Source of the DNA: Parcubacteria group bacterium
GTDB lineage: Bacteria; Patescibacteriota; Minisyncoccia; Moranbacterales; UBA2206
Direction: 5' to 3'
NCBI GenBank assembly: GCA_041664225.1
Contig: JBAYLE010000005.1
Coordinates: 1 to 60,171 of the forward strand
Length of the DNA stretch: 60,171 nt
Shown: one piece after another, positions 13,395 through 60,109 of the stretch
Layout of the letters: each line of letters opens with the position of its first letter
Numbering within the stretch: the first letter of the stretch is position 1
The notes under the pieces: generated by a model
What the model was told of the DNA's origin: nothing
The model's input: only the letters and a program-made list of their open reading frames with translations
Database searches by the model: none
Position numbers and translations under genes: made by a program

Positions 13395-14102
13395 TTGCCA
13401 AATAGCCAATTTTCTGATAAAATGGAGAAGTTAAATCGCAAAAAATCTATAAAAATGGGTGATAATTTGGAAAAATGGGCTCCCCGAGAAACAAAAGAAG
13501 ACAATCTTGACGAGAAATATTACGGCGTCGGCGGGTTTATTTTGGAGATAATCAAAGTTTTCGTTCTGGCTTTCGTCATCATATTTCCCATCAGGGTTTT
13601 TTTATTCCAGCCCTTTTTTGTGCAAGGCGCCAGCATGGAACCAAATTTCGAAAATAATCAATATTTGATCGTGAATGAGTTTGGCTATAAAAAAACAGTC
13701 GCGGATATCAATGGCACGACGCTTTTCACTGTCAATCCTTTCAAGGAGATCCAAAGGCAAATGGTCGTCGTTTTCCGCTATCCGAAAAATCCATCCCAAT
13801 TTTTCATCAAGAGAGTAATCGGCCTGCCAGGAGAAAAGATCCAGATCAAGGATAACAAAATCACCATTTTCAATTCCGAGCATCCGGACGGATTTGTTTT
13901 GGATGAGAGTGCGTATCTTGCGTCGAAAGTCATAACTGCCGGCGATTTGATCATAAACCTAAAAGAAGATCAATATTTCGTATTGGGAGATAATCGCGGA
14001 GCCAGTTCTGATTCGAGATCGTGGGGGCCTGTTCCGGAGGCAGATGTGATTGGGAAAGTGTTACTGCGAGCGTGGCCGCTCAATCAGCTCTCTGTGTTTT
14101 AA
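13395..14102 (+). CDS. lepB: Signal peptidase I
   Basis: GASMEPNF (catalytic Ser box), IKRVIGLPGE, GDNRGASSDSRSWGPV. The start is uncertain: TTG at 13395, ATG at 13422 or 13455. Confidence 0.85.
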   Translation: MPNSQFSDKMEKLNRKKSIKMGDNLEKWAPRETKEDNLDEKYYGVGGFILEIIKVFVLAFVIIFPIRVFLFQPFFVQGASMEPNFENNQYLIVNEFGYKKTVADINGTTLFTVNPFKEIQRQMVVVFRYPKNPSQFFIKRVIGLPGEKIQIKDNKITIFNSEHPDGFVLDESAYLASKVITAGDLIINLKEDQYFVLGDNRGASSDSRSWGPVPEADVIGKVLLRAWPLNQLSVF

Positions 14103-41656: not shown

Positions 41657-42481
41657 ATGGCTAAATTTTCAAAATACCTATATATTATCAGCGCGCTAGC
41701 AATTATTATTGGCGGCTTTTTTGTTTTATCCAAAAAAAGCGCGGAGGCGCCGGTTGGAGAAAAGACCCAAATCCTGCAGGATTTGCCGGTGGGTAATAAT
41801 GCCAAGGAAGAAACAAATGCGCCAGCGCCTGCCTCGACTAGCAGAGACGCAACGCCTCTGCGAGGCGGGGAAAATATTTTGCCGGAAAAGAATAAAGATG
41901 GTGAAAAAAATATTCCCGATAAAATTTTAATCAAGGTTCCCTTCACAACGCAAGCGCCGTTTGCCAATTGGGACATGCTGCATGAAGAATCTTGTGAAGA
42001 AGCATCACTTATCATGCTCAAATATTATTTGGACAAAAAACCGCTGACGCCGGATATCGCCGAAAAAGAAATTCAAAAGATGGTAAAGTTTGAAATCAAA
42101 AATTATGGCGATTATAAAGATACGACTGCTAGCGAAACTGTGAAACTGGCCGAAGATTTTTACAAAATCGGTAATCTGAAAGTAGTTTATGATTTTCAAA
42201 AAGAAGATTTGAAAAAACACTTGGCCAAAGGCAATCCCGTAATCGTGCCGGCGGCAGGGAGACTCTTGGGTAATCCCAATTTTACTGCGCCGGGACCACT
42301 ATATCACAACTTGGTTCTGGTTGGGTATGATGGAAACACTGTAATTACCAATGACCCTGGCACGCGCAAGGGTCAAGGATATATCTACAATATTGATGTT
42401 TTGTACAATGCCATTCATGATTTTCCTGGCAGGCCGGAAAACATAAATCAGGGCAGGAAAGCGATGATTGTTTTAGAATAA
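41657..42481 (+). CDS. Membrane-anchored C39-like cysteine peptidase domain protein
   Basis: VPFTTQAPFANWDMLHEESCEEASLIM, then HNLVLVGYDG (Cys/His dyad context of Peptidase_C39_2-like proteins). Confidence 0.6.
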   Translation: MAKFSKYLYIISALAIIIGGFFVLSKKSAEAPVGEKTQILQDLPVGNNAKEETNAPAPASTSRDATPLRGGENILPEKNKDGEKNIPDKILIKVPFTTQAPFANWDMLHEESCEEASLIMLKYYLDKKPLTPDIAEKEIQKMVKFEIKNYGDYKDTTASETVKLAEDFYKIGNLKVVYDFQKEDLKKHLAKGNPVIVPAAGRLLGNPNFTAPGPLYHNLVLVGYDGNTVITNDPGTRKGQGYIYNIDVLYNAIHDFPGRPENINQGRKAMIVLE

Positions 42482-45977: not shown

Positions 45978-46436
45978 ATGAAGAAAAACTTAGGAGATAA
46001 TGCTATCACTTTTTCATTAAATACAAACATTTACACGCCGGAGATAATTTATAAAACGTGCTATGTTTTCATTGATCGGATGTATATTTATCTTGATCAG
46101 CCAGAAAAAAATCTAATCACGGCATCTCTTAGGGGTAAACGTGAACTAAATCAAGGGGAGCTAAAAAAGCTAGAAGGAGAGTTTTTCAATGAGCTTTTGA
46201 ACACAAAACTGCGGGAAGAAATTTCCAGGAAAAACGCGAAACTTTTAGAATATATAGTGGGAGGGGCAATAAACGCTGCGCTGGAAAAGGATGAAAATTC
46301 CGGCAAAGATGAATTCGCCGATATTGAAAAGGAAATAAGGCAGCTGGATGAAGAATTGGCAGAAATGGACAAGGCGGATTATAAAAAAGACTCTCTTAAT
46401 ATCAGGCAAATCAAGAAGATTAATAAAAAGAAATAA
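45978..46436 (+). CDS. hxsD: HxsD-like protein (His-Xaa-Ser system)
   Basis: EFFNELLNTKLREEI resembles the LLNDYxLRE signature I recall for the HxsD family. Acidic coiled-coil tail. Confidence 0.55.
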   Translation: MKKNLGDNAITFSLNTNIYTPEIIYKTCYVFIDRMYIYLDQPEKNLITASLRGKRELNQGELKKLEGEFFNELLNTKLREEISRKNAKLLEYIVGGAINAALEKDENSGKDEFADIEKEIRQLDEELAEMDKADYKKDSLNIRQIKKINKKK

Positions 46437-46663
46437 TGGCAAAGTATCAAAAATCAATAAACTTTTGCAGCAGCTTGTATTCAGAAAAAAGCATCAAGGA
46501 GGCCACAAATGAATACAAAAAAGCCTATGGCGGAAAAATCGGCTTTGAAATTTTAAAGGAAAAGGGATATACACAAATAAAGTTATTATTAAACGATAAT
46601 AATTTGGGTGACAATATTGCGGATGAATTTTCCAATTATTTGTTGTTTTTGAACATACAATGA
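46436..46663 (+). CDS. Short HxsD-like paralogue (ends just after the EFxNYLL motif)
   Basis: The template SINFCSSLYSEKSIKEA ... IKLLL ... ADEFSNYLLFL parallels the N-terminal half of the 45978 protein. TAATG and ATGA overlaps with both neighbours. Confidence 0.45.
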   Translation: MAKYQKSINFCSSLYSEKSIKEATNEYKKAYGGKIGFEILKEKGYTQIKLLLNDNNLGDNIADEFSNYLLFLNIQ

Positions 46664-48126
46664 AAAAAGATGAATCTTTTTTAGTAAAAAATAGGAAGCT
46701 GGATAAATTTTATTTCAGGCAGCTTCGGGAAAAAACTCTCATTACTAATGATGGCGGAAATTGGATTTCTTTGCCGAATGATGATTTTAGGCGTTTTATT
46801 TCAGGAAAAATAAAGAACACAGAAAAGCTGTACCAGGAACTTGAAAAAAAAGGATTCATAAATGTCGGAAAGAAAAAACTTTCTGAATTAGCCAGCCAGT
46901 ATTTAAAATTAAACTACTCGCTTTCTCAGGGGCCTTCTCTTTTTATCATTGTTCTTACGCTGCGGTGCAACCACCGCTGTTTGTATTGCCAGGTTATTCC
47001 GGAAAATCCCAAGCAGAAAGGTTTTGATATGGGCAAAGCAACTGCCAAGAAAACGGTTGATTTGATTTTCCGGACTCCCTCAGAAAGTGTCCGTCTTGAA
47101 TTTCAAGGCGGAGAGCCACTACTCAACTGGCCAGTGTTGAAATACGTTGTGAAATATGCCAAAGAAGTGAATAAAAAGAAGAAAAAAAATTTAAAAATAA
47201 GCATTGTTTCCAATCTTTCCTTGATGGATGACGAAAAATTGAAATTTCTGCTGGACGAGGAAGTTGACATTGCTTGCTCGTTGGATGGGCCGGCTAAAGT
47301 GCATGATAAGAACAGAACATATTTGGACGGCGCTAGCAGCCATAAAGTTGTATCCGTCAAAATAAAAAAAATTCAAAAAGAAATCAAAAAAAAGCAAGAA
47401 AAAACAAAAGAAAAGACGGACAAATTGAATGCAATACTTACAGTTACTAAATTTTCCCTCCCGTACTATAAAGAAATTATTGACGAATATATGAGCTATG
47501 GCCTGGATAATGTTTTTATCAGGCCGCTGAGCCCTTTCGGCCTGGAACGAAAAACAACTGACCTAATCGGTTATACGGCGGAAGAGTTTTTGGAATTTTA
47601 CAAAAAATCCTTGGATTACATAGTGGAATTGAACTTAAAGGGGAAACTTTTTGCGGAAAGAGGAACATTCAATATCCTAAGAAAAATATTAAAGCAAGAG
47701 GATCCCAATTTTCTGGAATTGCGTTCGCCATGCGGGGCAGGAATCGGGCAGATGGCTTTTGACTATGACGGAAAAATATTTACTTGCGATGAGGGCAGGA
47801 TGGCGCGCCGGATGAGCCATGATAACTTTATGATAGGCGAGGTAGATGATAATGACTATAACCGGCTGATTGATAATGAAGTTGTAAAAACTATGTGCCT
47901 GGCATCCTCTCTGGATAATCATGCCGGCTGTCAAGATTGCGTCTATAAACCATATTGCGGAGTTTGTCCCTTGGCTAATTATATCGAGTGCGGAACGATT
48001 TTTCCCCAGTTAGCCAATACGTTGCGATGCCGGATAAATAAGGGCATCTTTGACTATATATTCCGAAAGATGGGGGACAAAAAATACCGAACCGTTTTTG
48101 AAAGCTGGGTGGGTAAGGGGTTATAA
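46660..48126 (+). CDS. hxsB: Radical SAM / SPASM-domain maturase, HxsB-like
   Basis: CNHRCLYC (CxxxCxxC), FQGGEPLL, C-terminal CGAG ... CDEG ... CQDCVYKPYCGVCP (SPASM-type Cys pattern). Confidence 0.7.
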   Translation: MKKDESFLVKNRKLDKFYFRQLREKTLITNDGGNWISLPNDDFRRFISGKIKNTEKLYQELEKKGFINVGKKKLSELASQYLKLNYSLSQGPSLFIIVLTLRCNHRCLYCQVIPENPKQKGFDMGKATAKKTVDLIFRTPSESVRLEFQGGEPLLNWPVLKYVVKYAKEVNKKKKKNLKISIVSNLSLMDDEKLKFLLDEEVDIACSLDGPAKVHDKNRTYLDGASSHKVVSVKIKKIQKEIKKKQEKTKEKTDKLNAILTVTKFSLPYYKEIIDEYMSYGLDNVFIRPLSPFGLERKTTDLIGYTAEEFLEFYKKSLDYIVELNLKGKLFAERGTFNILRKILKQEDPNFLELRSPCGAGIGQMAFDYDGKIFTCDEGRMARRMSHDNFMIGEVDDNDYNRLIDNEVVKTMCLASSLDNHAGCQDCVYKPYCGVCPLANYIECGTIFPQLANTLRCRINKGIFDYIFRKMGDKKYRTVFESWVGKGL

Positions 48127-48165
48127 TTCTTTTTAGGGGCTGTGGACAACATGGTGGGCGGTGTA

Positions 48166-48195
48166 TTTACATAATTATGCGGGTTATGGTATAAT
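48166..48195 (+). promoter_or_regulatory. Internal promoter TTTACA-N18-(TG)G-TATAAT in front of the precursor gene
   Basis: Extended -10 TGGTATAAT read directly. Short AT-rich leader with no SD. Confidence 0.5.
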
Positions 48196-48222
48196 ATAAA
48201 CATAAAAATTTCTTATAAAAAA

Positions 48223-48477
48223 ATGGCAAGGAATAAAAAAATCCCTCAAATTAAAAAAAACATTAAAGTATTTTTGCAAAGTGAGGAAGGAAAGATTGTC
48301 GAAAAAGATGCCGTCAAGCTGGGCATAGCTTTAATCGCGGCGGCGGGCATTATAAGCGGGATAGCCAAGCCGGACGCAACCCAGGCAGGATGCCACTCTT
48401 CCCACTCTTCCCATGGCTCGCATGGCTCCCATGGCTCGCATGGCTCCGGCAGCGGGTGCCAGATCGGCGGGTGGTAA
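48223..48477 (+). CDS. hxsA: His-Xaa-Ser repeat peptide (HxsA-like candidate precursor)
   Basis: C-terminal C-HSS-HSS-HGS-HGS-HGS-HGS-GSGC-QIGGW. N-terminal basic segment followed by a hydrophobic helix (KLGIALIAAAGIISGIA). Confidence 0.7.
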   Translation: MARNKKIPQIKKNIKVFLQSEEGKIVEKDAVKLGIALIAAAGIISGIAKPDATQAGCHSSHSSHGSHGSHGSHGSGSGCQIGGW

Positions 48478-48496
48478 TAAAGTTTAATAACATATT

Positions 48497-49273
48497 ATGG
48501 CAAAAAAAATAATACTTGCATTAATTGTTGTTGTGATCTTGGTTGTCATAGCCTTAGTTGGTGGCAACATCTCAAAAAATAAAAAAGCAAGCGAGGTGAA
48601 CCAACAAAATAATGATTTGAAGGTGGTGAAAAACGTTCCTTGTCCAGAGGCTTTTAATCCTGAAAAAGCATCAGAAAATTTTGACAAGCTTGCTCCTTCT
48701 ACTAAAGATCTGCTTGGCCAGTACTCTTTTTGTAAGGCTGCTTTGGACGGCGATAAGACAATTTGTGGCAAGTTGCCGCCCAGCTATGAAAAATCAACTT
48801 GTGAGGACGATTATGGTACCGGAGTTGATGTGTTTTTGACGAAAATATTGGGGAAGAAAAATTTTACCGATGATGACGTTAAATATTGCGTTGATAAAAA
48901 TATTTTTGGCGTAGCCGATTTGGAACAAAGGGGGAATCGATGCCGGACAACGCTTACAGCCATATTCAGCCAAGATGTCAAAATTTGCGACCAGGAAACC
49001 AGTGATTATGGAAAGGCCAATTGCATCAATGTTGTCTCGGGCAAGCCAAGCGCTGGCAACTGCGATAATGTCTCAAATGAAGAGAGCAAAGAAATGTGCA
49101 AAATCAGGGCTAAATTCATCCAGACTCTTAAGTTCGAAAAAACAGCTGTCAATTGTGATGCTATATCGGAGCAATATATCAAATTTAATACCCTCTGCCG
49201 GTTGCATTTTCTCTCCTCGTGCGATGATTTTTTGAAGCAATTGCGGGATAATTACTTTTGCGTGGGAAATTAA
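48497..49273 (+). CDS. Membrane-anchored exported protein with 14 spaced cysteines
   Basis: N-terminal TM IILALIVVVILVVIALV. Cysteines recur every 10-25 aa (for example CPEAF, FCKAAL, ICGKL, TCEDD, YCVDK). Confidence 0.65.
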   Translation: MAKKIILALIVVVILVVIALVGGNISKNKKASEVNQQNNDLKVVKNVPCPEAFNPEKASENFDKLAPSTKDLLGQYSFCKAALDGDKTICGKLPPSYEKSTCEDDYGTGVDVFLTKILGKKNFTDDDVKYCVDKNIFGVADLEQRGNRCRTTLTAIFSQDVKICDQETSDYGKANCINVVSGKPSAGNCDNVSNEESKEMCKIRAKFIQTLKFEKTAVNCDAISEQYIKFNTLCRLHFLSSCDDFLKQLRDNYFCVGN

Positions 49274-50317
49274 ATGGAAATAGTCCTGGTTGTTACAAAG
49301 CAATGCAACTTTGCTTGCCGGTATTGCTATGAAAAAAACAAAAAAATAGCGGGGGGAAAAATGCCTTTCGAAACAGCCAGAAAAATTCTGGATTTTTTTT
49401 TACCGCATTTACGCGCTGGTGATGCGGTGCATTTATTCGGCGGCGAGCCGCTTCTGGTTTTCCCTCTAATCAAAAAAATTATCAGCCATATCAAATCAGA
49501 AAATAGCAAGGTTCAAATCAGATTAGATACAAACGGCTCTCTGCTTTCCGGCAGAATCCTCGATTTTCTAAGGAAAAATAAAGTCAGCCTGACACTCAGT
49601 ATGGATGGCGGTCCGGAAACGCAAAACTGCAACCGCTGCGCTCAAGACAAAGCTGTGGACACTTATGATATTATTGCCAAAAGCAATTTTTTTAAAAAAA
49701 TTGTCAGTTATCCGCAACTGCAGATTAATCAAGTTGCCGCTATGAATAGGATTAACTTTTTGGCTCAGGATTTTTTCCACCTGGTTAAATTGGGCTTTAG
49801 AAATATAAATATTAAGGAAGAGAAGGGGAAAATTTGGCCGAAGACAAAACTGGAGGTACTGGAAAAAGAGCTGCGCAAAATTAATTATTACTGCCTGAAA
49901 CACCGGCAGAATATTAAGATAAAACATCTGAGCGGATATTTGGACAATCCCAAAAGCGGATTGCGGAAGAGCATGGAATGCCATCCTGAGCAGATGGTCG
50001 TCGCCCTGCCTAGCGGAGATATTTTTCCGTGCTCGGCAGTGTTGAGCGTGACAAAAAAACTCTATCTGGAAAGCATGAAGGTAATCTCTGCCACCGATTT
50101 GGAAAAGATCAAGCATAAAGAATTTTTCAAAATCAAGCGTCAAGCCTACTTGAAGGCTTATGATAAAATGAAACAAGATACGATGTTTATGGGCAAGAAA
50201 GTGCTATGCGCCGCTTTGCTTAAGAATCAAGACAATTTGAATTTAAAGAAGATGCATGAAAATGAAAAACAGAAAGCTAGTGTTTTCAACCGCAGCATAA
50301 AATATTTTCTCAAATAA
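49274..50317 (+). CDS. Radical SAM enzyme (possible HxsC counterpart)
   Basis: CNFACRYC, FGGEPLL. The start abuts the previous stop. Confidence 0.7.
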   Translation: MEIVLVVTKQCNFACRYCYEKNKKIAGGKMPFETARKILDFFLPHLRAGDAVHLFGGEPLLVFPLIKKIISHIKSENSKVQIRLDTNGSLLSGRILDFLRKNKVSLTLSMDGGPETQNCNRCAQDKAVDTYDIIAKSNFFKKIVSYPQLQINQVAAMNRINFLAQDFFHLVKLGFRNINIKEEKGKIWPKTKLEVLEKELRKINYYCLKHRQNIKIKHLSGYLDNPKSGLRKSMECHPEQMVVALPSGDIFPCSAVLSVTKKLYLESMKVISATDLEKIKHKEFFKIKRQAYLKAYDKMKQDTMFMGKKVLCAALLKNQDNLNLKKMHENEKQKASVFNRSIKYFLK

Positions 50318-50331
50318 AAATATTTATCCTT

Positions 50332-51369
50332 ATGGCAGAAAAAAAGAAAGAAATCAGCTTGTTTATTGTCTTGACGCATAATTGCAATTTTCATTGCCGT
50401 TATTGCGAAATATGCAGCCATTTTTGCAAGGTTTGCAAAGGCAACTGCGTGATGACCGGAGAGACGATCAATAAAATCGAGGAATTATTGAAAAGATCGG
50501 AAAATGATTTTAAAAAAATCAACCTGTCTTTTTTTGGAGGCGAACCGTTGTTGCATTTTGACAAAATGAAGAAGTTAGTAGATAGGGTGAGAAAATCAAA
50601 AAATAGTAACAAATATGAAATTTATCTTTATACCAACGGGTATCTGCTGGATAAGAAAAAGATCGAGTATCTTAAAAAAAACAAGGTGCAAGTCAGTTTA
50701 AGTTTCGACGGCAGAGAAAAAACACAGAATTTAAATCGCCCGTTAAGAGAAAATAATGGAGAGACATATAAAACAGTGCTTGAAAACATTAAAACTTTAC
50801 GCTCCAGAAACAAAATTTTTTCCGATGTGAATTTGTACATGACATCATTTCCATCTTTGGCAAAAGATCTTTTTGAAGATTTCAAACACATGCTACGCTT
50901 GGGATTTCGCAGATTTGAATTAGTGCCGGCGGTTTCAGGCAGGGGATCATGGGACTGGAATGAAGAACAATTAAAGGTGTTTGAAAAAGAGCTAGAAAAA
51001 ATAAAAAAATTAGCGGTAAGGCTCCATAAGGCTGGAATAAATTTGATTTTTCAGGAAGTATCTGAAATCAAGAATCCCGAACGCTACTTTGAAAACTTCG
51101 GCCAAAATATTTTCAGCATTGATTCAAATGGCAGTGTTTATTCCTCGCCATATTATTTGGTCCTGACTGAACCGCATCGGGGAAAATACAGAATTGGGCA
51201 TGTAACAACGGCCAAAAATATCAAGGATGATTTTTTGGGTAAAAAAGATCTGCTCAATTCAGGGGATTTATTTAAATTATATTATATCAACAAGGGGAAT
51301 AATCTCAGAAGCATGGTTATCTGCAATAAAAAATTATGCGAAATAAGAAAATTGATAAAATATACCTGA
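50332..51369 (+). CDS. Radical SAM enzyme with an extra Cys cluster directly after the SAM motif
   Basis: CNFHCRYCEICSHFCKVCKGNC, FFGGEPLL. Confidence 0.7.
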   Translation: MAEKKKEISLFIVLTHNCNFHCRYCEICSHFCKVCKGNCVMTGETINKIEELLKRSENDFKKINLSFFGGEPLLHFDKMKKLVDRVRKSKNSNKYEIYLYTNGYLLDKKKIEYLKKNKVQVSLSFDGREKTQNLNRPLRENNGETYKTVLENIKTLRSRNKIFSDVNLYMTSFPSLAKDLFEDFKHMLRLGFRRFELVPAVSGRGSWDWNEEQLKVFEKELEKIKKLAVRLHKAGINLIFQEVSEIKNPERYFENFGQNIFSIDSNGSVYSSPYYLVLTEPHRGKYRIGHVTTAKNIKDDFLGKKDLLNSGDLFKLYYINKGNNLRSMVICNKKLCEIRKLIKYT

Positions 51370-52343
51370 AAAATGTTTGCCGATCGATTTCCGGGCTTTC
51401 CGGCATAAGCCGGCCTGGAAAGTTAGCAATGCAAAAAGCGAAAAAATTTGTTTCGCTTTTATATTTGGCAAATTCGCAAAACAGCAATTTTTTGTCCGAC
51501 GATTTTTACTTTGGTTTTTCGCTAAAAATAAAGAGAGGCAATGGAAAAATAATTCCGTCAATCAGGATACTGAACCACAATTATTATCCCAGGGTGACAA
51601 GCGAGCTGCAAAGGGAAAAAATTTATAAAAAGAGAGGACAGATCATAAAGCACATTTTCAAGGCCCTGAATTTTTCAACCGAAAAAAATCTCACGACCAT
51701 CGATTATTTGCTGGAAAAAACTTACGATAAGAATGTCCTCTTGCCGGTGCAATTCGATGCTAATTTTGAGAAAAATAAGAATGCGCTCAAGGTTTATTTT
51801 TGGTGCGGGATCAAATATTCCACGCGGGAGCATAAGTACGCAGTATTGAAGGAAATTCTAGGGAAAGAAAAAATGGCAGATGACATTCTTTTTCTTCGCA
51901 ACAGAAACATCGAATTATTCAGTTTTGATTTTGGGGAAAAAAAGAAAGGCGCCAAAATTTACGTGCGTTACCGCATGAATTCGAGGGAATTTTACGCGGA
52001 TTTAAAAAAGTTTAATTTTAAAAAAGAAACGATCGCGGATATCAATAAATTCTTCTTTGCTCACAAGGAGTATTTGCAGCCAGATGTCACAATTTGTTAT
52101 AATGTCGCGGGCAGGGCTCTCTCTATGAAAAAAATCGAGCTTTTTTTGGATAAAAAAGTAGAAAGAAAAACCGTAATAGCAAAAAAAGTGGCGGCGGATT
52201 TCACCCGTAAATTCTCAGAAAAATTCATCGCTCCTCTTGAAACGGAAGACTTTTTTGGGGAATCATATGCTTACGCGGTAGGAGAAAATTTTATAGCCGT
52301 CTATTTCCAGAAAATAAAATCAGAAAGAAATAGGTCTGGTTAA
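51336..52343 (+). CDS. Unknown beta-strand-rich protein (speculative ABBA-prenyltransferase-like fold)
   Basis: Recurrent strand-like segments FGFSLKI, ALKVYFWCG, LFSFDFG..GAKIYVRY, DVTICYNV, FIAVYFQ. The start is uncertain: 51336 overlaps the upstream gene by 34 nt, and the next ATG is at 51429. Confidence 0.5.
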   Translation: MRNKKIDKIYLKNVCRSISGLSGISRPGKLAMQKAKKFVSLLYLANSQNSNFLSDDFYFGFSLKIKRGNGKIIPSIRILNHNYYPRVTSELQREKIYKKRGQIIKHIFKALNFSTEKNLTTIDYLLEKTYDKNVLLPVQFDANFEKNKNALKVYFWCGIKYSTREHKYAVLKEILGKEKMADDILFLRNRNIELFSFDFGEKKKGAKIYVRYRMNSREFYADLKKFNFKKETIADINKFFFAHKEYLQPDVTICYNVAGRALSMKKIELFLDKKVERKTVIAKKVAADFTRKFSEKFIAPLETEDFFGESYAYAVGENFIAVYFQKIKSERNRSG

Positions 52344-52363
52344 GCAAATAATCTTTATAAAAA

Positions 52364-53254
52364 ATGAAAAAAGCCGACATTAAAACAGGATTTTTGTGCA
52401 ATAATGATTGTCTTTTTTGCGTGCAGGGCAGTGAGAAGAAAAAATTTGGCAACAAAAAAACCGCGGAAATAAAAAAAATTATGGATGAGGCCAAGCGTGA
52501 TTGTCAGATCGTCGTTTTTACCGGTGGTGAGCCGACTATCCGCCAGGATATTATTGAGTTGGTGGGGTACGCGAAAAAGCTGGGTTTTGCGATGATTCAG
52601 ATCCAGTCCAATGGCAGAATGTTCGCCTACAAAGATTTTTGCAAAAAAATAATCAAGGCAGGAGCCAATGAATTCGCCTTAGCTTTGCATGGCCACATTC
52701 CTGAGTTGCACGATTATCTCACGCAAAGCGAAAGTTTTCTGCAAACGGTAAGAGGAATAAAAAATCTTAAAAAACTCAAACAAACCGTGATTATGAATAC
52801 CGTAATCACCAAATCCAATTATCGCCACTTGCCGGAAATTGCCAAGCTTTTGGTGAGCCTCGATGTTGATCAGTTCCAATTTGCATTTGTCCACGCCATT
52901 GGTTCGGCTGGCAAAAATTTTCAAAGCATCGTTCCGCGGATGACAATGGTTATGCCGTATCTTAAAAAGGCGATAAGTATCGGCAAGCATTTCAATAAGA
53001 GCGCTATGGTCGAGGCCGTGCCTCGTTGTCTTTTAGAAGGCTATGAAGACAATATATCGGAAAATATGATGCCGGAAATGAAGATATATGACCAGGATTT
53101 TATAATTAAAAGTTACACTCAAGCTAGAATTACTAAAGGCAAAGCCAGAGGACCGCGATGCAAAAAATGCAAATATTTCCATGTTTGTGAAGGATCTTGG
53201 AAAGAATATCCGGATCATTTTGGGTGGGATGAATTTGAACCGTTGTTAACATAA
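52364..53254 (+). CDS. Radical SAM enzyme, CNNDCLFC subgroup, C-terminal CxxCxxxxxC
   Basis: FLCNNDCLFCVQG, FTGGEPT, QSNGRMF, RCKKCKYFHVCEG. Confidence 0.7.
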   Translation: MKKADIKTGFLCNNDCLFCVQGSEKKKFGNKKTAEIKKIMDEAKRDCQIVVFTGGEPTIRQDIIELVGYAKKLGFAMIQIQSNGRMFAYKDFCKKIIKAGANEFALALHGHIPELHDYLTQSESFLQTVRGIKNLKKLKQTVIMNTVITKSNYRHLPEIAKLLVSLDVDQFQFAFVHAIGSAGKNFQSIVPRMTMVMPYLKKAISIGKHFNKSAMVEAVPRCLLEGYEDNISENMMPEMKIYDQDFIIKSYTQARITKGKARGPRCKKCKYFHVCEGSWKEYPDHFGWDEFEPLLT

Positions 53255-53260
53255 CTTTTT

Positions 53261-54220
53261 ATGATAAAGGCGGAGAAAATAATAAGTATTTTGCGAAATG
53301 TTCCAAAAAATAAAGACGGTGCTATTTCCAGAAAAAACCTAGACAGACATATCCTAAAAAGAGGAACGGATCTGGAAAAATTACTTGGTTTTTTGGCTAA
53401 AAAAGAATATATTTTTCACGGCTCGAAGAAGCTTTATAAAATTATCAAACCGCAAAAAAGCCATAGAATTTCGGGAGAAACAATATCAGCTATTTACGCT
53501 ACAAAAATACCCTCAATAGCTATTTATTATGCTATGATTAGCCGCAGTACGCATAAGATAGTTCATGGAAAAAAGTTTTACAATAAGCATAAAAATAACA
53601 ATAAGGGGTATATTTATATTTTGAGAAGAAATGACTTTGAAAAAAACAATGATGAGAATTTCCTTTGCCGCAAAAAGGTCGAACCAGAGTTTATTTTTGA
53701 ATGCCGATTTGATGATTTTTATAATAATCTTAAAAAAGAAAAAATTAACTGGAAAAAAGCCGGAGAAATAATTTTGCAAAATTACATCCATTCAAGCGCG
53801 GTTCACAACGTGAAACATGTCTTGAAAACCGTTAGAAATTCTTCTATCATTGCGAAATCGGTATGCCCGGAAAAAATAGATGATGTCAAGATGGGAGCCT
53901 TACTACATGATATTGGGAGAGTGGATGATTTCGACAGGGAATCGACGCATGCACAGAAGGGGGCGGCTATCGCTTATGAAATTCTGGCGAAATATTTCAG
54001 AAATGCACCCCTTGATTTCAAAAAAATTTTATTTGCCGTAAAATACCATTCGCGGGGCAAAATATCCCGAGATCCGGTTATTGGAGCGATTTGGGATGGA
54101 GACAGGCTTGATTTAGAGAGAGTCGGAATGAAAGTTAATCCAAAATATCTTTCCACTAAAAAAGCTAAAGAAATTATGCGTTCTAGGCTTATCGAAAAGC
54201 TTAAAAATATATCTTCTTAA
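53261..54220 (+). CDS. HD-domain phosphohydrolase-like protein with unknown N-terminal domain
   Basis: H ... LLHDIGRVDD ... HAQKGA ... KYHS in the C-terminal half. Confidence 0.6.
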   Translation: MIKAEKIISILRNVPKNKDGAISRKNLDRHILKRGTDLEKLLGFLAKKEYIFHGSKKLYKIIKPQKSHRISGETISAIYATKIPSIAIYYAMISRSTHKIVHGKKFYNKHKNNNKGYIYILRRNDFEKNNDENFLCRKKVEPEFIFECRFDDFYNNLKKEKINWKKAGEIILQNYIHSSAVHNVKHVLKTVRNSSIIAKSVCPEKIDDVKMGALLHDIGRVDDFDRESTHAQKGAAIAYEILAKYFRNAPLDFKKILFAVKYHSRGKISRDPVIGAIWDGDRLDLERVGMKVNPKYLSTKKAKEIMRSRLIEKLKNISS

Positions 54221-54228
54221 CAACCGTC

Positions 54229-55362
54229 ATGCTAAAAAACAATTTAAAACTAAGAGAAAAAGCCGCGGAAGAAAAAAGGCAGTGGGTGAGAATCACCAGA
54301 GCGTGCAACAATGATTGCCTTTTTTGTTTGGATCAAGAAGCCCATAACGGGAAACTTGTTCCGATAACAGAAGTGGTGAGAGTTTTGAAGCAGGGGGGAA
54401 AGGAAGGAGCGGCCAGAGCTATCATTTCCGGCGGAGAGCCGACTCTTCATCCGCAAGTTTTTGAAATAATTAGAAAAGCAAGGCAATTGGGCTACAAGCA
54501 TGTTCAGATGATCAGCAATGGCCGGATGCTGGCTTATGAAAATTTTGTCCAAAAGCTCAAAGAGGCTGGTTTAGATGAGGTTACCCTCTCCTTGCATAGC
54601 CATAAAAAAAATGATTTTGAAAAAATGTCAGGCGTGAAAGGAAGCTACTTACAGGCGATGCGGGGGCTCAAGAACGCTTTGGACAATAATTTCATTGTGA
54701 GCGTGGACATCGTGATCAATAAGATAAATTACAAGACACTCAAAGAAACAATGATTTTTTTTGAAAAAATGGGAGTATCTGAATTCGATCTTTTGCACCT
54801 AGTTCCATTTGGAAGTGCCTGGAAAAACAAGGATCAGTTGTTCTTTTCTTCAGCAGAGGCAAAAAAATATTTGCACCGGGCTTTTCAATTAGGGAAAAGA
54901 AAAAATTTATTCATCTGGACCAATCGTTTGCCGGCAGCATATTTGGAGGGCTTTGAAGAATTGATCCAGCATCCTATCAAAATGTCCGGTGAGATCAAGG
55001 GGATGGAAAGAAACTTTTTAGAATTTGTGAAAAGCGGCAAAAAAATGCCATGTTTTGGCGAAAGATGCGAATTTTGCTTTCTCCATGATTTTTGCGCTGA
55101 TCTTTCCGAGTTACGGGACAAAAAATTTTTGGAAGCCAAGCTGGCGCCTCCGTGTTTTGTGCAAAAAAAGGCTCCAAAAAAAGTGTTTAAATTCACGAAA
55201 AATTTTGATATCTATGAATTTTTGAAATTTTTTATTGACCATCGTTATTTTATTAAGAGTACTGGTTGCAGTAATTGCAAATACGACCAGCTTTGCCAGG
55301 GCGCCCAAATCAACGAGATCAGGAGCAAGGGATTCAAAATTTTAAAATCCATTAAAAAATAG
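54229..55362 (+). CDS. Radical SAM enzyme, CNNDCLFC subgroup
   Basis: RACNNDCLFCLD, ISGGEPT, ISNGRML, SLHSH, C-terminal CSNCKYDQLCQG. Confidence 0.7.
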   Translation: MLKNNLKLREKAAEEKRQWVRITRACNNDCLFCLDQEAHNGKLVPITEVVRVLKQGGKEGAARAIISGGEPTLHPQVFEIIRKARQLGYKHVQMISNGRMLAYENFVQKLKEAGLDEVTLSLHSHKKNDFEKMSGVKGSYLQAMRGLKNALDNNFIVSVDIVINKINYKTLKETMIFFEKMGVSEFDLLHLVPFGSAWKNKDQLFFSSAEAKKYLHRAFQLGKRKNLFIWTNRLPAAYLEGFEELIQHPIKMSGEIKGMERNFLEFVKSGKKMPCFGERCEFCFLHDFCADLSELRDKKFLEAKLAPPCFVQKKAPKKVFKFTKNFDIYEFLKFFIDHRYFIKSTGCSNCKYDQLCQGAQINEIRSKGFKILKSIKK

Positions 55363-55371
55363 TTACTGTTT

Positions 55372-56307
55372 ATGGCAAATATTGGATATATTCAAATCAC
55401 GCGCGAATGCAACCAGAAATGCATCATATGTTCCAATCCGCCGACGGACCAGTTTCTTGAATTTGCTCAAGCTAAAAAAGAAATAGACGGTCTAAAAGCG
55501 AAGGGATGCAGCGGAGTTATTTTTACCGGCGGGGAACCGACTCTTTACGCAAAACTTCCAGAACTTATCAAATATGCTTCGCGCGCCGGATTATTTCCCA
55601 GAATCATCACCAATGGCCAAAAGATTGCCAAGATTGCTTATTTGAAAGAACTCAAAAAAGCCGGGCTCAAGCATTTGCATCTTTCGGTTTATTCTGGCGA
55701 GGAAGGAATCCAAAGCCGGCTTTCCGGCAATAAAAATTCGCTGAAAAACATAAAGAAAGCTCTGGATAATTTGAAAAAAATCGGGGGGATCAGTGTGGAT
55801 GTCAATACAGCCATCAGCCGATACAATGCCGGGCACCTTTCAAAAACAGCAAGCTGGCTAATTGAGAGGTATCCCTTTATCAGCCATTTTGTTTTTAACA
55901 ATCTGGATCCTTTCATGAACCGGGTATCAGAGAATCCGGAAGTCGTGCCCAAGCTAGCTGACTTTGAGCTAGAACTGCATAAAACTTTAAAAATGCTGGA
56001 GCAAAACAAAAAGACATTCCGAGTCGAACGCGTGCCCCTGTGCTATCTGCCGGAATTTGAGCATATTGCCACGGAAACCAGAAAAATTATCAAAAGCGAA
56101 AGCCGTATGATTTTCTTTTTGGACCGGCGGGGTAAATTTGAGCAGACTGGTTTTCGTGAATACAAAAAATTTCCGCCCTGTCAGGCTTGTTCGCTTAAAA
56201 AAATTTGCGCCGGTCTTTATGCCAAGGGCGGGTATTATAGCGAAAAAGAACTTTTTCCGGTCTTTGTTGATCCTCAAAATATAATCGATAAAATCTCCAA
56301 AGGCTGA
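55372..56307 (+). CDS. Radical SAM enzyme, related subgroup
   Basis: RECNQKCIICSN, FTGGEPT, ITNGQK, C-terminal CQACSLKKICAG. Confidence 0.7.
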   Translation: MANIGYIQITRECNQKCIICSNPPTDQFLEFAQAKKEIDGLKAKGCSGVIFTGGEPTLYAKLPELIKYASRAGLFPRIITNGQKIAKIAYLKELKKAGLKHLHLSVYSGEEGIQSRLSGNKNSLKNIKKALDNLKKIGGISVDVNTAISRYNAGHLSKTASWLIERYPFISHFVFNNLDPFMNRVSENPEVVPKLADFELELHKTLKMLEQNKKTFRVERVPLCYLPEFEHIATETRKIIKSESRMIFFLDRRGKFEQTGFREYKKFPPCQACSLKKICAGLYAKGGYYSEKELFPVFVDPQNIIDKISKG

Positions 56308-56336
56308 CACTGGCAACTCAACAGTAATAAAAAAAT

Positions 56337-57263
56337 ATGGCGCTCAATTACATTCCATTGGCAATAATATTTTTCATCAGTTTTTTTGTATTAAAAGAAG
56401 ATTGGCAATATAAAAAAATCAGAAACAAATGGATAATGCTAGGTTTTTCGGCCGGAGCCGTATATCTTGTCATTTCTTATTTATTTGGAATAGTCAGCAT
56501 TGAGTATTTGGGAAAAATTGTTGCCAACACCGCCATTTCATTTTTAGTTGGTTTTCTTATTTGGCAATTCGGCTTCTGGCCTTCGGGAGACGCTAAGTTT
56601 TTTACGCTTATCGCTTTCTTGTTGCCGCTGGATCTTTACGCCCAGGCATATCTTTTTTATTTTCCTTCCTTTTGGTTGCTCTTCTATTCCTTTGCGGCGT
56701 TCTTGGTCTTCATCTTTTTTAAAGCGCTGATATTTTTTGTAAAATATTTATTTTCCCATCGGGGCAAGAGCGGCCGGACAAATGAATTGATAGCTGAGGT
56801 CATCAATTCCAAAAAATTATTAAATTTAAATTTTTGGGTAAAAATCGGCAAGCGGCTTGCGATTGGGCTGTTAATTTACTTTATCGCAGTCAAATTTTTT
56901 TTGAAAACCGACTTCAATTTTTGGAGGTTTATTATTTCGCTGGTTGTCTTCGCGGTCGTTCTGGCTCTCCTGGATTTTTATGTGGATCATAATTCCAGAT
57001 ATAAAATAAAAACGCTTGAGCTGAAAAAAGGCATGAATATATCCAAAGAAACTTTAGCTGAGATCAAGAAAGACAATAACTTTCCTGAATTAGCGGGGAA
57101 AATTTTTCCGGAAGGACTGACTGAAAAACAGGCGTCAGCAATTAAAAATTACTTGGCAGGCAGAGATATTCAAGAAATTTATATTTTCAAGACTATTCCT
57201 TTTGCCTGGTGGATAGTCTTGGGAGCCTTTTGGGTGGCGGTCTCATCCCAAAGATTATTCTGA
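56337..57263 (+). CDS. Polytopic membrane protein, A24 (prepilin/preflagellin peptidase)-like aspartic peptidase with inserted soluble domain
   Basis: Two Asp contexts as in the A24 family: LKEDWQYKKIRNKW and FWPSGDAKFFTLIA (GxGD-like). C-terminal IPFAWWIVLGA resembles the PilD-type ending. Confidence 0.55.
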   Translation: MALNYIPLAIIFFISFFVLKEDWQYKKIRNKWIMLGFSAGAVYLVISYLFGIVSIEYLGKIVANTAISFLVGFLIWQFGFWPSGDAKFFTLIAFLLPLDLYAQAYLFYFPSFWLLFYSFAAFLVFIFFKALIFFVKYLFSHRGKSGRTNELIAEVINSKKLLNLNFWVKIGKRLAIGLLIYFIAVKFFLKTDFNFWRFIISLVVFAVVLALLDFYVDHNSRYKIKTLELKKGMNISKETLAEIKKDNNFPELAGKIFPEGLTEKQASAIKNYLAGRDIQEIYIFKTIPFAWWIVLGAFWVAVSSQRLF

Positions 57264-57284: not shown

Positions 57285-57314
57285 TTGGCAATTTGTATTG
57301 TTTTGTGGTATAAT
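57285..57314 (+). promoter_or_regulatory. Promoter TTGGCA-N18-(TG)G-TATAAT for the 916-aa gene
   Basis: Same extended -10 TGGTATAAT as at 48187-48195. SD-less AT-rich leader. Confidence 0.5.
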
Positions 57315-57358: not shown

Positions 57359-60109
57359 ATGAAAAATTTATTTTCACAAAAAAAGGGCTGGGCTTTGATT
57401 TTCTTCCTCTTAGTTTTTTTAGTTACTTTTAGTTTCAGTGAAAAGGCGGAAGCTGCAATTTGTGGCTGTCCTAATAATAAAAACTGTCCTGCATCCTCCT
57501 CCTGCTACGACGATGGATATGGCAATTATAGTTGCTATTCATACTCAGGGGGTGACGGGTGTGTTGCCTGTACGCCATCTTTTCCTATTACCATTAATAG
57601 TTTTTATGCCAGCCCTCCTGCTGTTTTAAAAAATACCTCAACTACCCTGTATTGGAGTACCAGCGGTTCTGGAACCTATTCTTGCAAGGTGCAGTATTTA
57701 GTATACTGGCTTCCACCATCTTATCGCGTATTGTCTGCCACAGCGACAAGCGGTTCAGTAGTAATGGATCTTGATACTGAGGCAAAAAACGTGTCTTTAA
57801 TTTGTTGGCAGACGGCAGGGACGGGCCATACTACTTGTAATTCTGGGGCCAATGCCAAGATTACTGTTGATGTGCACAAAACCGAAACTAACAGCACAAC
57901 TACCACTTGCACATGCGATGGTTCGATTCCGGGTGGGAGTGTCACTTGCCCGGGAGCCGGTAATCCTTGGACATCCGGAGTTCCAGCTTCCTGGCACAAT
58001 GTAGGTTCTTGCACGGGACAGCCCTGTGAATACACGACGCCGGCGCCTACCTGCAGTATCTCATATTCCCCAGGTACAATTACCTCTCCGGGCAGTTCCA
58101 CAGCCACGGTGACTATGAATAATGTTACCAGCGCCACCTATGGCTGTACCGGCCCTCAACCGGTTGCATCTGGAAGCGGCTTGGGTGTTGCCGCCAGTGC
58201 TACTTATGTATTTACCTTTCCTGCTGGCCAAACCGGCACGGAAACATGCACAGCGTCCGTGTCAGGTCCTGGTGGTTCAAGCTCTTGCAGCGGTTCAGTT
58301 GTTGTTAACGCTCCCGCCAACCAAGATCCTGAAGGCGGAGTAGAGTCTGGAGGAACTTGTACTAATGGCACCATACATCTTTGGGGCTGGGCTATTGACC
58401 GAGACGCACTCACTACCAGCATACCCGTCCATTTTTACGAAGGCGGAACCTACAAAGGTCAATGTAATACCACTACGCTTAGATCCGATATCAATACCGC
58501 CTATGGTACCACTGGCAACCATGGCTTTGACTGCTATATTTCTGGATTTTCTGCTGGCAACCATACCATTACAACGTATGCAATCAATACTCCAGCTGGC
58601 AATAATCCGGCTTTGCCTTGGGGGACCAATCCGCAAACTGTCAATTGCCCCGTAACTGACTGCGCCCTCCCCTGGGGCGGCACGCTAGCCAATGGTTCCA
58701 GCGTTACTGCCTATCAGGCCAGCTCGGTTCCATGCGGATCCACTTGCACCAGCCAAACTAGAACCTGCAACAGCGGTACCTTAAGCGGCACCTACACCAG
58801 CCAGACCTGTTCGGTATCCGGTTGTCTTTCCTGCAACCGTCCTTGTGGCGGATCAACCATCAGTGGCAACTGGGGCGCTTTATGCTATCAATCCGCCTCC
58901 GTACCGTGCGGATCCAGTTGTTCCTCATCCCAGGGTTACTGTAATAATGGTCTCTGGACAACCCCATATGCGGCTGGTTCTACCGCAGCCAGTTGTAGCG
59001 TAGCGGCTTGCGTTTCTTGTGCCTCTCCTTGCGGACTTTCCGCCACGACTAGTGGTAATTGGGGGCCTTTCTGTTATCTGGCCAGTTCAGTGCCTTGCGG
59101 ATCCAGTTGTTCCTCATCCCAAGGTTATTGTTTTAATGGTAACTGGATAACTCCATATACGGCTGGCTCTACCGCAGCCAGTTGTAGCGTAGCGGCTTGT
59201 CCGACTTGCACCCTCCCATGGGGCGGCACGATTGCCAATGGCTCCAGTGTCACCGCCTACCAAAACAGCTCTGTTGCTTGTGGCAGTAGTTGCGTCAGTC
59301 AAACCCGTACCTGTAACAGCGGAGTTCTGAGCGGCACTTACACTAATCAGAATTGTTCTGTGGCGGCTTGTTCCTGCAATTTGCCGTGGGGCGGTACTCT
59401 AGCCAATGGCTCTAGTGTCACTGCCTACCAAGCCAGCTCCGTGCCTTGCGGTTCCAGCTGTTCTAGTCAAACCAGAACATGCAATAGCGGAGTTCTCTCT
59501 GGCAGCTACACCAGTCAGACTTGCAGCGTGGCGGGCTGTACTTCCTGCGTCTCTCCTTGCGGACTGGCTGCTACGGCCAGCGGCAATTGGGGAGCCTTCT
59601 GCTATCTGGCCGGTTCTGTCCCTTGTGGATCAAATTGTCTTTTGATTGCATCAGAGGGTTACTGTCAAAACGGTGTCTGGACAACACCTTACGCTGTTGG
59701 CGCCACTAGTGGGTCTTGTAGTGTAGCAGCTTGCGCTTCCTGCGTCTTGCCATGGGGTGGCAGCATTCCTTCCGGCAACAACGTTGTTGCTTATCAAGCT
59801 AGTTCCGTTCCGTGCGGATCCAGTTGCTCTCCCCAAGTGAGAACCTGCACCAACGGCTTCCTGAGCGGCAGCTATGCCAATCAAAATTGCTCGGCCACCG
59901 GTTGCCTCGGCTGCACTGCGCCGTGGGGAACAGCAATGGTTTCTGGCGGAGCAGTCACTGCCTGCCAATCCGCTTCCGTCCCGTGTGGGTCAAGCTGTGC
60001 CTGTGAAACTCGCACCTGTACCAACGGCGTTCTTTCTGGCAGCTTCACTGTTCAAGGACCTTGCAGCGTCCAAGTTTGTGACAAAAATTGGAAAGAAGTG
60101 GCCCCTTAA
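57359..60109 (+). CDS. Large exported Cys/Ser/Thr/Gly-rich modular repeat protein
   Basis: N-terminal KKG-WALIFFLLVFLVTF hydrophobic segment, a central GW...HGF beta-domain, and eight C-terminal Cys-rich modules of two types. Confidence 0.8.
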   Translation: MKNLFSQKKGWALIFFLLVFLVTFSFSEKAEAAICGCPNNKNCPASSSCYDDGYGNYSCYSYSGGDGCVACTPSFPITINSFYASPPAVLKNTSTTLYWSTSGSGTYSCKVQYLVYWLPPSYRVLSATATSGSVVMDLDTEAKNVSLICWQTAGTGHTTCNSGANAKITVDVHKTETNSTTTTCTCDGSIPGGSVTCPGAGNPWTSGVPASWHNVGSCTGQPCEYTTPAPTCSISYSPGTITSPGSSTATVTMNNVTSATYGCTGPQPVASGSGLGVAASATYVFTFPAGQTGTETCTASVSGPGGSSSCSGSVVVNAPANQDPEGGVESGGTCTNGTIHLWGWAIDRDALTTSIPVHFYEGGTYKGQCNTTTLRSDINTAYGTTGNHGFDCYISGFSAGNHTITTYAINTPAGNNPALPWGTNPQTVNCPVTDCALPWGGTLANGSSVTAYQASSVPCGSTCTSQTRTCNSGTLSGTYTSQTCSVSGCLSCNRPCGGSTISGNWGALCYQSASVPCGSSCSSSQGYCNNGLWTTPYAAGSTAASCSVAACVSCASPCGLSATTSGNWGPFCYLASSVPCGSSCSSSQGYCFNGNWITPYTAGSTAASCSVAACPTCTLPWGGTIANGSSVTAYQNSSVACGSSCVSQTRTCNSGVLSGTYTNQNCSVAACSCNLPWGGTLANGSSVTAYQASSVPCGSSCSSQTRTCNSGVLSGSYTSQTCSVAGCTSCVSPCGLAATASGNWGAFCYLAGSVPCGSNCLLIASEGYCQNGVWTTPYAVGATSGSCSVAACASCVLPWGGSIPSGNNVVAYQASSVPCGSSCSPQVRTCTNGFLSGSYANQNCSATGCLGCTAPWGTAMVSGGAVTACQSASVPCGSSCACETRTCTNGVLSGSFTVQGPCSVQVCDKNWKEVAP
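58661..60078 (+). repeat. Eight tandem coding modules (about 55-65 aa each) of two alternating types, order A-B-B-A-A-B-A-A
   Basis: Type A: C.LPWGG.(I/L)ANGSSVTAYQ.SSV.CGS.C.SQTRTCNSG.LSG.YT.Q.CSV..C. Type B: C.SC..PCG....SGNWG..CY...SVPCGS.C....GYC.NG.W.TPY..G....SCSVAAC. Confidence 0.85.

Follow-up and report, generated by a model that had tools for sequence, protein, structure and literature searches.

The last gene of a cluster rich in radical S-adenosylmethionine (radical SAM) genes in a Parcubacteria group bacterium encodes a 308-aa membrane protein which, judged by its sequence, is an A24-type (GxGD-class) polytopic aspartic peptidase of an unnamed, diverged subfamily, with catalysis predicted. 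The gene lies on contig JBAYLE010000005.1 of assembly GCA_041664225.1, in the 60,171-nt stretch of the forward strand analysed here, which we call the window. With a probability of about 0.5, we propose that the protein is an active FlaK-type A24 peptidase, accessory to extended HxsA3/HxsA4-type clusters with multiple radical SAM genes, which would cut the peptide precursor HxsA near the junction between its leader and its hydrophobic stretch. It is well supported that the peptidase family is dedicated to radical SAM/Hxs clusters rather than to pili, because the linkage to these clusters persists across lineages and pilin-like open reading frames (ORFs) are nearly absent from its surroundings. 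HxsA is the most likely substrate and the best candidate; here we rely on genomic context and topology, not on a class III motif.

A diverged subfamily of A24 peptidases

The ORF 56337-57263 (plus strand) begins with an ATG and encodes 308 aa. The same start Met is found in two metagenomic homologues (82% and 73% identity), and we judge the gene to be real. The following features could be assigned to it, with the evidence in brackets:

56337..57263, plus strand: A24-type (FlaK-like) polytopic aspartic peptidase, 308 aa, about eight transmembrane (TM) helices (ORF, Pfam matches of relatives, AlphaFold2 (AF2), Foldseek)
56400..56402, plus strand: codon of D22, the first putative catalytic Asp, in the context E-D-x5-I-R-N (invariant in the alignment)
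56580..56597, plus strand: W-P-S-G-D-A motif (aa 82-87) with D85, the second putative catalytic Asp (alignment conservation)
56991..57197, plus strand: soluble alpha/beta domain, aa 219-287 (69 aa), predicted cytoplasmic, Arc_PepC-like (AF2 secondary structure and confidence, hhalign)
57198..57263, plus strand: C-terminal TM helix with conserved P288-F289...G296 (alignment; weak Arc_PepC_II matches at this place in relatives)

An earlier note on this DNA, made from the letters alone, had pointed to two Asp contexts and a C-terminal segment as reminiscent of prepilin peptidases. All three are located where they had been placed: EDWQYKKIRNKW corresponds to aa 21-32 and contains D22, PSGDAKFFTLIA corresponds to aa 82-93 and contains D85, and IPFAWWIVLGA spans aa 287-297. 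Far from varying among homologues, which the note had named as a possible outcome, D22 and D85 are invariant in 27 full-length relatives, as are I28, N30, W81, G84, K87, F289 and G296, and positions P82 and A83 are conserved to at least 90%. In eight archaeal relatives, D22 and D85 are again invariant, and so is the W-P-[AS]-G-D-A-K motif. Because the family consensus reads WPAGDAK, the motif is PxGD and not GxGD. TM1 begins at residue 2, and an N-terminal Cys-rich methyltransferase domain, sought by Pfam, was not found in the peptidase; as this region is absent, the protein is not a bifunctional enzyme of the PilD type.

The note had also suggested a search with the Peptidase_A24 hidden Markov model (Pfam PF01478), and here the outcome was divided. 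The window protein alone scores 18.7 bits (E 0.0024, aa 10-118) and thus stays below the cut-off of 26.5, but 24 of the 27 relatives match the model (best E 5e-8). The relatives from DPANN archaea reach 28-42 bits, over the curated cut-off, and the archaeal and bacterial sets align over their entire length, the soluble domain being part of the alignment (hhalign 99.9%, E 7e-36, 308 columns). An exhaustive HMMER search yielded 799 cluster representatives at E <=1e-3 and 264 at <=1e-10. Members of the family are labelled "hypothetical protein" in NCBI records, and an NCBIfam scan of the peptidase returned no match, a model for the family not existing there. Sequence-profile searches of the PDB with the bacterial and archaeal alignments matched neither FlaK nor any peptidase.

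For the AF2 model of the peptidase (pLDDT 87, predicted template modelling score (pTM) 0.81), a Foldseek search against the PDB ranked FlaK (3s0x_A) first, with probability 0.93, E 0.036 and TM-scores of 0.34/0.43; the next match had an E of 1.7. FlaK is the only solved A24 enzyme that we found and the only notable fold match in the PDB. A positive-inside count on the AF2 helices gave 23 Lys and Arg residues inside versus two outside. Both Asp residues fall in predicted inside (cytoplasmic) loops, and the loop of D22 holds five Lys/Arg residues. Known A24 active sites sit at the cytoplasmic face (PMC4343526, PMC4471445), and the topology check recommended in the note likewise puts both Asp residues on the predicted cytoplasmic face of the membrane.

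The soluble segment of about 70 aa, described in the note as an insertion, was recovered at aa 219-287. It carries 13 Lys/Arg residues and is predicted as alpha/beta at good confidence. The Pfam model PF06819 ("Archaeal Peptidase A24 C-terminal domain") matches five archaeal relatives with 23.7-40.3 bits (cut-off 23.4), and the soluble domain of the window protein, for which a direct Pfam match to PF06819 was not obtained, aligns column for column with these archaeal Arc_PepC domains (hhalign). Modelled alone and compared with the PDB, the domain gave no meaningful match, which neither supports nor excludes the idea of a fold for recognising ribosomally synthesised, post-translationally modified peptides (RiPPs). 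A relative of 239 aa and 41% identity (P0004, L004:1385-2104) retains the two Asp motifs as well as the terminal PF...G helix and lacks the soluble domain altogether; its gene comes after an orthologue of the 311-aa radical SAM gene that precedes the peptidase in the window.

The hallmarks of the subfamily are D-x5-I-x-N after TM1, W-P-A/S-G-D-A-K before TM4, a cytoplasmic Arc_PepC-like domain before the last TM helix, and the terminal P-F...G helix. The A24 model matches at family level, the two Asp residues are invariant and predicted to be cytoplasmic, and FlaK ranks first among the fold matches; on these grounds, the assignment as an A24-like aspartic peptidase, made in the note from the motifs, has held up.

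Genomic neighbourhood of the peptidase family

A scan of species-representative genomes gave 80 loci from Omnitrophota, Parcubacteria/Moranbacteria, Elusimicrobia and DPANN archaea. ORFs were called in these loci and then searched with the cluster proteins of the window; HxsB orthologues were counted at a threshold of at least 200 bits. The numbers below refer to the 75 non-redundant loci, i.e. those with a peptidase ORF, or to a subset of 27 loci with full 10-kb flanks. A radical SAM gene lies at most 300 bp from the peptidase in 69 of the 75 loci. At least one radical SAM gene is present in 72 and at least three in 59 of them, with a median of five per locus. Among the full-flank loci, 19/27 contain an HxsB orthologue, 21/27 any Hxs marker, 24/27 at least three radical SAM genes and 9/27 a precursor of the HxsA type. 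The survey of co-occurrence with Hxs-like genes proposed in the note has thus turned out in favour of a linkage, both for the radical SAM genes next to the peptidase and for HxsB.

This linkage persists although the arrangement changes: the Hxs core is found upstream of the peptidase in the window, downstream of it in L011 and in divergent orientation in L015, and the order is also varied in L030. A block consisting of the HxsC4-like gene, the 377-aa radical SAM gene, the 311-aa radical SAM gene and the peptidase is constant in the relatives from the candidate phyla radiation (CPR) and the Omnitrophota. A homologue from Elusimicrobia (L001, 31% identity) is located between radical SAM genes, and its stop/start codons overlap with those of the flanking radical SAM genes; the same cluster also holds HxsD, HxsB, an HxsA4 precursor and NifH/NifDK-like genes. 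Relatives of 383 aa and 239 aa likewise adjoin radical SAM genes. The sequencing runs in which the sequence is contained are groundwater DNA metagenomes only.

A pilin-like ORF with a GFTxIE-type N-terminus was seen only once across 88 loci. In the 60-kb window no pilus, Tad or secretion-ATPase gene was found (Pfam search of the larger ORFs; pilin-motif scan of ORFs of at least 40 aa), as the note had already stated for pilin and secretion-ATPase genes in the vicinity. Membership in the A24 family would in itself fit a general prepilin peptidase that serves type IV pili or class III proteins encoded elsewhere, its adjacency to Hxs genes being incidental. We regard this as very improbable, since rearrangements have not dissolved the radical SAM/Hxs synteny in CPR, Omnitrophota, Elusimicrobia or DPANN archaea, the flanks are essentially devoid of pilin-like ORFs, and the sequence family is a distinct one that has no NCBIfam name. 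As its relatives sit among radical SAM/Hxs genes and not among pilus genes, the peptidase probably trims a product of its cluster.

The tight coupling to the flanking radical SAM genes, together with a cytoplasmic domain for which a PDB search gave no match, would also be expected if the protein had a non-proteolytic role, e.g. as a membrane anchor or scaffold tethering the radical SAM maturases or an exporter. Of all explanations considered, this one appears to us the least probable: neither of the two catalytic Asp residues varies among the bacterial and archaeal members, nor do their motif contexts, which would not be expected of a pure scaffold.

In a reverse survey, metagenome contigs were scanned for the conserved HxsA leader, which yielded 80 HxsA3-like loci. 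The peptidase is present in only five of them. A comparison of the HxsA precursors from loci that have the peptidase with those from loci that do not revealed no difference: they agree in leader, hydrophobic stretch and AxA-like site. Because many HxsA3-type loci lack the gene, the peptidase is best seen as a module accessory to only some of these systems, and HxsA maturation in general does not require it.

In the window itself, the peptidase gene is the last of a tight same-strand array extending from 45978 to 57263, with gaps of -34 to 96 bp, in keeping with the note, which had a polytopic 308-aa protein closing the cluster. The array comprises six radical SAM genes in addition to the A24-like peptidase:

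45978..46663, plus strand: HxsD (152 aa) and an HxsD-related protein (75 aa); TIGR03976 54.2 versus cut-off 50, NF038315 37.9 versus 41 (below)
46660..48126, plus strand: HxsB radical SAM/SPASM maturase; TIGR03978 508 bits versus cut-off 370
48223..48477, plus strand: HxsA3-like precursor, 84 aa; NF038309 48.6 bits, below cut-off 65; family alignments
48497..49273, plus strand: Cys-rich exported or anchored protein, 258 aa; jackhmmer
49274..51369, plus strand: two PapB-like radical SAM proteins, 347 and 345 aa; profile matches
51336-52343: ORF of 335 aa without a detectable family, overlapping the preceding radical SAM gene by 34 nt
52364..53254, plus strand: HxsC4-like radical SAM protein, 296 aa; NF038332 178 bits, below cut-off 500; orthologues in nearly all loci
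53261..54220, plus strand: HD-domain protein, 319 aa; weak NarE-like N-terminal match
54229..55362, plus strand: HxsC/MoaA-like radical SAM protein, 377 aa; orthologues in L010-L023, L001, L100 and L103
55372..56307, plus strand: HxsC-like radical SAM protein, 311 aa, 29 bp upstream of the peptidase; most constant neighbour of the peptidase

Orthologues of the 311-aa radical SAM gene are found directly upstream of the peptidase in L004 and L010-L023, whereas neither the 335-aa ORF nor the HD-domain protein was detected in any other surveyed locus. HxsB and HxsD score over their curated cut-offs; the HxsA3 precursor stays under its cut-off, and all HxsC-like radical SAM proteins stay under those for HxsC/HxsC4. 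Because the precursor and the HxsC-like proteins score below cut-offs, we regard the cluster of the window as a divergent, extended Hxs variant. PADLOC reported generic viperin-like similarity only for the radical SAM proteins and nothing for the peptidase.

Some further observations concern the array and its surroundings. Two strong promoter-like sites, each with 11/12 consensus positions, are located at 48098-48195 directly upstream of the HxsA gene and inside the cluster, as would fit a precursor that is expressed separately and at a higher level. The 258-aa protein is rich in Cys, with an anchor or signal at its N-terminus. Its family, with members such as L020:846-1772, L011:17107-18012, L028:7260-8129 and L129:9231-9941 (two jackhmmer searches converge on the same members), is found immediately next to HxsA in many loci of the HxsA3/A4 type, whether or not they contain the peptidase, and may be an unrecognised core component of these systems. 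The remaining window has housekeeping functions (ParAB, topoisomerase, purine synthesis, FtsA/FtsZ, signal peptidase I). The signal peptidase I (Peptidase_S26, E 1e-43; 13395-14102) could serve AxA sites, and a Peptidase_C39_2-like protein is encoded at 41657-42481, 4 kb upstream of the Hxs cluster.

The Elusimicrobiota loci L001-L003 (723-13163) are radical SAM-rich loci with NifH/NifDK-like paralogues, described in an earlier publication as putative clusters for a tetrapyrrole cofactor. The A24-like peptidase is present in them along with HxsD, HxsB and an HxsA4 precursor (84 bits, cut-off 55), which suggests a peptide substrate for these loci. In the Elusimicrobia study describing them, neither a peptidase nor HxS peptides are mentioned.

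HxsA and other candidate substrates

In the HxsA precursor of the window (84 aa), the leader (aa 1-34) contains the motif FLxSEEGK; it is followed by a hydrophobic stretch spanning aa 35-48, an AxA-like site at about aa 53-56 and a core with HxS/HGS repeats. The HxsA3/A4 precursors of peptidase loci share a basic leader followed by a small residue and then the hydrophobic stretch, which speaks for HxsA as the substrate. As a further observation, the leader motif F-L-x-S-E-E-G is invariant among the HxsA3/A4 precursors of the window, L010-L087 and L092-L171; a Cys stands right behind their AxA-like site, and many of them carry G-G-W-C at the C-terminus. These features suggest that the core is small (about 25-30 aa), rich in His and cyclised or cross-linked, and so quite unlike the 214-aa HxsA of E. 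coli.

A class III signal peptide has a hydrophilic leader of 6-26 aa that terminates in a conserved Gly and precedes about 21 hydrophobic residues, usually with Glu5, and it is cleaved on the cytoplasmic side (PMC4471445). In HxsA the leader is 34 aa long, residue +5 is Ala instead of Glu, and an AxA-like site followed by Cys is present. The uncharged tract comprises 14 residues in the window and 10-15 in relatives, or 12-17 across the family if the count starts two residues ahead of the junction. At the position of the proposed Gly (-1), six of 18 relatives have Gly, eight have Ala and four have Thr. Judged by its sequence, the N-terminus of HxsA resembles a leader of the RiPP style joined to a signal of the Sec type that has an AxA site; with prepilins it shares only the general layout of basic leader, small residue, hydrophobic stretch and N-in orientation.

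The N-terminus of the 916-aa protein encoded downstream of the peptidase reads MKNLFSQKKG-WALIFFLLVFLVTFSFS-EKAEA|A, i.e. a 10-aa leader ending in Gly, a hydrophobic tract of 17 residues and then a signal peptidase I site. Here, residue +5 is Phe, and the type I site SEKAEA|A comes after the tract. The basic-Gly-hydrophobic junctions for which the note had compared these two proteins with class III substrates are both present as strings, but neither protein has the class III signal as defined in PMC4471445. Of the note's broader idea, a leader or signal protease dedicated to products of its cluster, the dedication to the cluster is borne out by the conserved radical SAM/Hxs synteny, which is kept in four bacterial phyla as well as in DPANN archaea, but class III signals on the two neighbours are not what we see.

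From the protease family, the conserved catalytic residues, the predicted topology and the conserved synteny, we infer the substrate, the cleavage site, the order of events and the role of the soluble domain as follows. The HxsB- and HxsC-like radical SAM enzymes would modify the HxsA precursor in the cytoplasm, holding its FLxSEEGK leader, and the short hydrophobic stretch of the precursor would insert into the membrane in N-in/C-out orientation. The peptidase, with its two Asp residues at the cytoplasmic face, would then cut at or near the junction K-x-[G/A/T]-hydrophobic (G34|I35 in the window), and this cleavage would free the leader and the bound maturases. The cytoplasmic Arc_PepC-like domain might dock the leader or a radical SAM partner, and the signal peptidase I encoded at 13395-14102 would cleave the precursor at its outward-facing AxA-like site.

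Several findings weigh against this proposal. An HxsA-type precursor is present within 10 kb in only nine of the 27 full-flank peptidase loci, and in Elusimicrobia loci with HxsB and peptidase and no HxsA, a search for an HxS-type or His-rich precursor within 10 kb found none. Conversely, about a dozen loci that extend over 8-10 kb downstream of HxsA have no peptidase, yet their HxsA has the same N-terminus. HxsA departs from the class III definition in its 34-aa leader, its tract of 10-15 residues versus about 21, the missing Glu5 and the G/A/T at position -1. On the side of the enzyme, the window protein by itself stays under the PF01478 cut-off, Pro replaces the first Gly of GxGD throughout the family, the fold match to FlaK is a weak one (TM-scores 0.34/0.43), and one relative (P0004) lacks the soluble domain.

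As the main alternative, the two cleavages might occur in reverse order. In this case, signal peptidase I would first free the HxS core at the AxA site, and the peptidase would then cleave the N-in remnant of leader and signal, clearing it from the membrane and recycling the leader-bound maturases in the manner of a signal peptide peptidase. This would account for the peptidase gene being accessory. In HxsA3/A4 precursors, an AxA-like motif is conserved behind the short hydrophobic region, the window contains a gene for an S26 signal peptidase, and signal peptide peptidases belong to the GxGD proteases (PMC4343526). Since the A24 enzymes characterised so far act on full-length precursors, which they cleave at the cytoplasmic boundary, and not on leftover fragments (PMC4471445), we consider such a clean-up function unlikely; the present data would fit either order of cleavage.

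Other exported products of the neighbourhood are the 258-aa protein described above, whose Cys-rich, anchored family flanks HxsA in many loci, and secreted Cys-rich proteins, which recur 3' of the peptidase in CPR loci (the window, L010, L016-L021, L023). In the window this position is taken by the 916-aa protein:

57285..57314, plus strand: promoter-like site TTGGCA-18-TATAAT with TG, between the peptidase and 916-aa genes; 11/12 consensus positions, consensus match only
57359..60109, plus strand: 916-aa Cys-rich repeat protein with a Sec/signal peptidase I-type signal; neighbour, probably outside the system

That the substrate should be one of these proteins is quite improbable. All candidates bear ordinary signal peptides with AxA-type sites. 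The downstream proteins fall into several unrelated families, all with type I signals, and are absent from the Elusimicrobia and archaeal loci. The family of the 258-aa protein is found also in loci without the peptidase. The 916-aa gene, in turn, is preceded by a strong promoter-like site and seems to form a transcription unit of its own; a terminator between it and the peptidase gene was not found. As no homologue of the 916-aa protein occurs beside the peptidase in the other surveyed loci, we rejected it as a conserved partner. The note's suggestion that it is cleaved by the peptidase by virtue of a class III signal is not supported, given its ordinary Sec/signal peptidase I signal, the missing conservation beside the peptidase and the promoter-like site of its own.

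Apart from this question, the 916-aa protein shows an unusual composition, with 8.6% Cys, repeats of about 56 aa (168-bp period) and a GC content of about 55% versus about 40% for the genome, and had no match in Pfam or NCBIfam. In contig L090, the C-terminal 473 aa are 99% identical and the 5' part differs, pointing to a strain variant or an assembly artefact.

Significance and comparison with known systems

To our knowledge, hardly any role of A24 peptidases is known other than the processing of pilins, pseudopilins and archaellins. In the literature that we searched, we found no link between A24/prepilin peptidases and radical SAM, RiPP or Hxs clusters. The subfamily described here places a protease family that is already known in a functional context that is new and conserved, and its substrate is probably not a pilin. 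A conserved subfamily linked to radical SAM/Hxs genes would extend the A24 class to the maturation of RiPP-like peptides or defence effectors. The groundwater Elusimicrobia loci with nitrogenase paralogues would be re-framed as well, as loci for peptide maturation instead of, or besides, the cofactor synthesis proposed earlier.

Among the known A24 enzymes, PilD/GspO share with the window peptidase the PF01478 catalytic core family. In contrast to them, the window peptidase does not have the N-terminal Cys-rich methyltransferase region, starts at TM1 and carries an extra Arc_PepC-like domain; pilus or type II secretion genes were not found next to it. Closer is FlaK (MEROPS A24B, PDB 3S0X) with the archaeal Arc_PepC A24 enzymes. 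These are likewise polytopic GxGD-class proteins with the first Asp after TM1 and the second in an xGD motif at the cytoplasmic face, they have a soluble cytoplasmic domain and no methyltransferase domain, and the archaeal members of our subfamily pass the cut-offs of both PF01478 and PF06819. The window protein differs from FlaK in its about eight TM helices, in its PxGD motif and in having radical SAM/Hxs neighbours instead of archaellin or pilin genes. Moreover, most members of the subfamily are bacterial (CPR, Omnitrophota, Elusimicrobia), and a match to the FlaK chain at the sequence level was not found.

That A24 paralogues may have dedicated or non-pilin substrates has precedents in EppA, which acts on DUF361 pilins, and PibD, which acts on sugar-binding proteins (PMC4343526). 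The substrates of both carry class III signals, unlike the candidate HxsA.

A 2026 study in Nature Communications showed HxsA to be the antiphage effector of the HXS system in E. coli; HxsB, HxsC and HxsD are needed for its cleavage near the N-terminus, which is termed non-canonical and for which the study identified no protease (PMC13128918). The peptidase described here is a concrete candidate for leader removal in Hxs-type systems, of which E. coli HXS is the one studied case. More tentatively, the subfamily could represent the first A24/GxGD peptidases whose natural substrate is not pilin-like but a radical SAM-modified HxS-repeat peptide, i.e. the membrane-embedded leader peptidase of an Hxs-type system. 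It is possible that this is the class of enzyme behind the non-canonical N-terminal processing in E. coli HXS, and that the cut leaves the peptide anchored in the membrane, in the style of a pilin, in CPR and DPANN.

The published HXS systems consist of four genes (HxsABCD) without a peptidase, and 99.7% of their occurrences are in Pseudomonadota (PMC13128918). Compared with those of E. coli and Klebsiella, the window cluster has an HxsA of 84 aa without a peptidoglycan-binding domain, and six radical SAM genes plus a peptidase. What the two have in common are HxsB and HxsD, which in the window score above their cut-offs, a precursor with HxS repeats, and radical SAM genes of the HxsC-like type.

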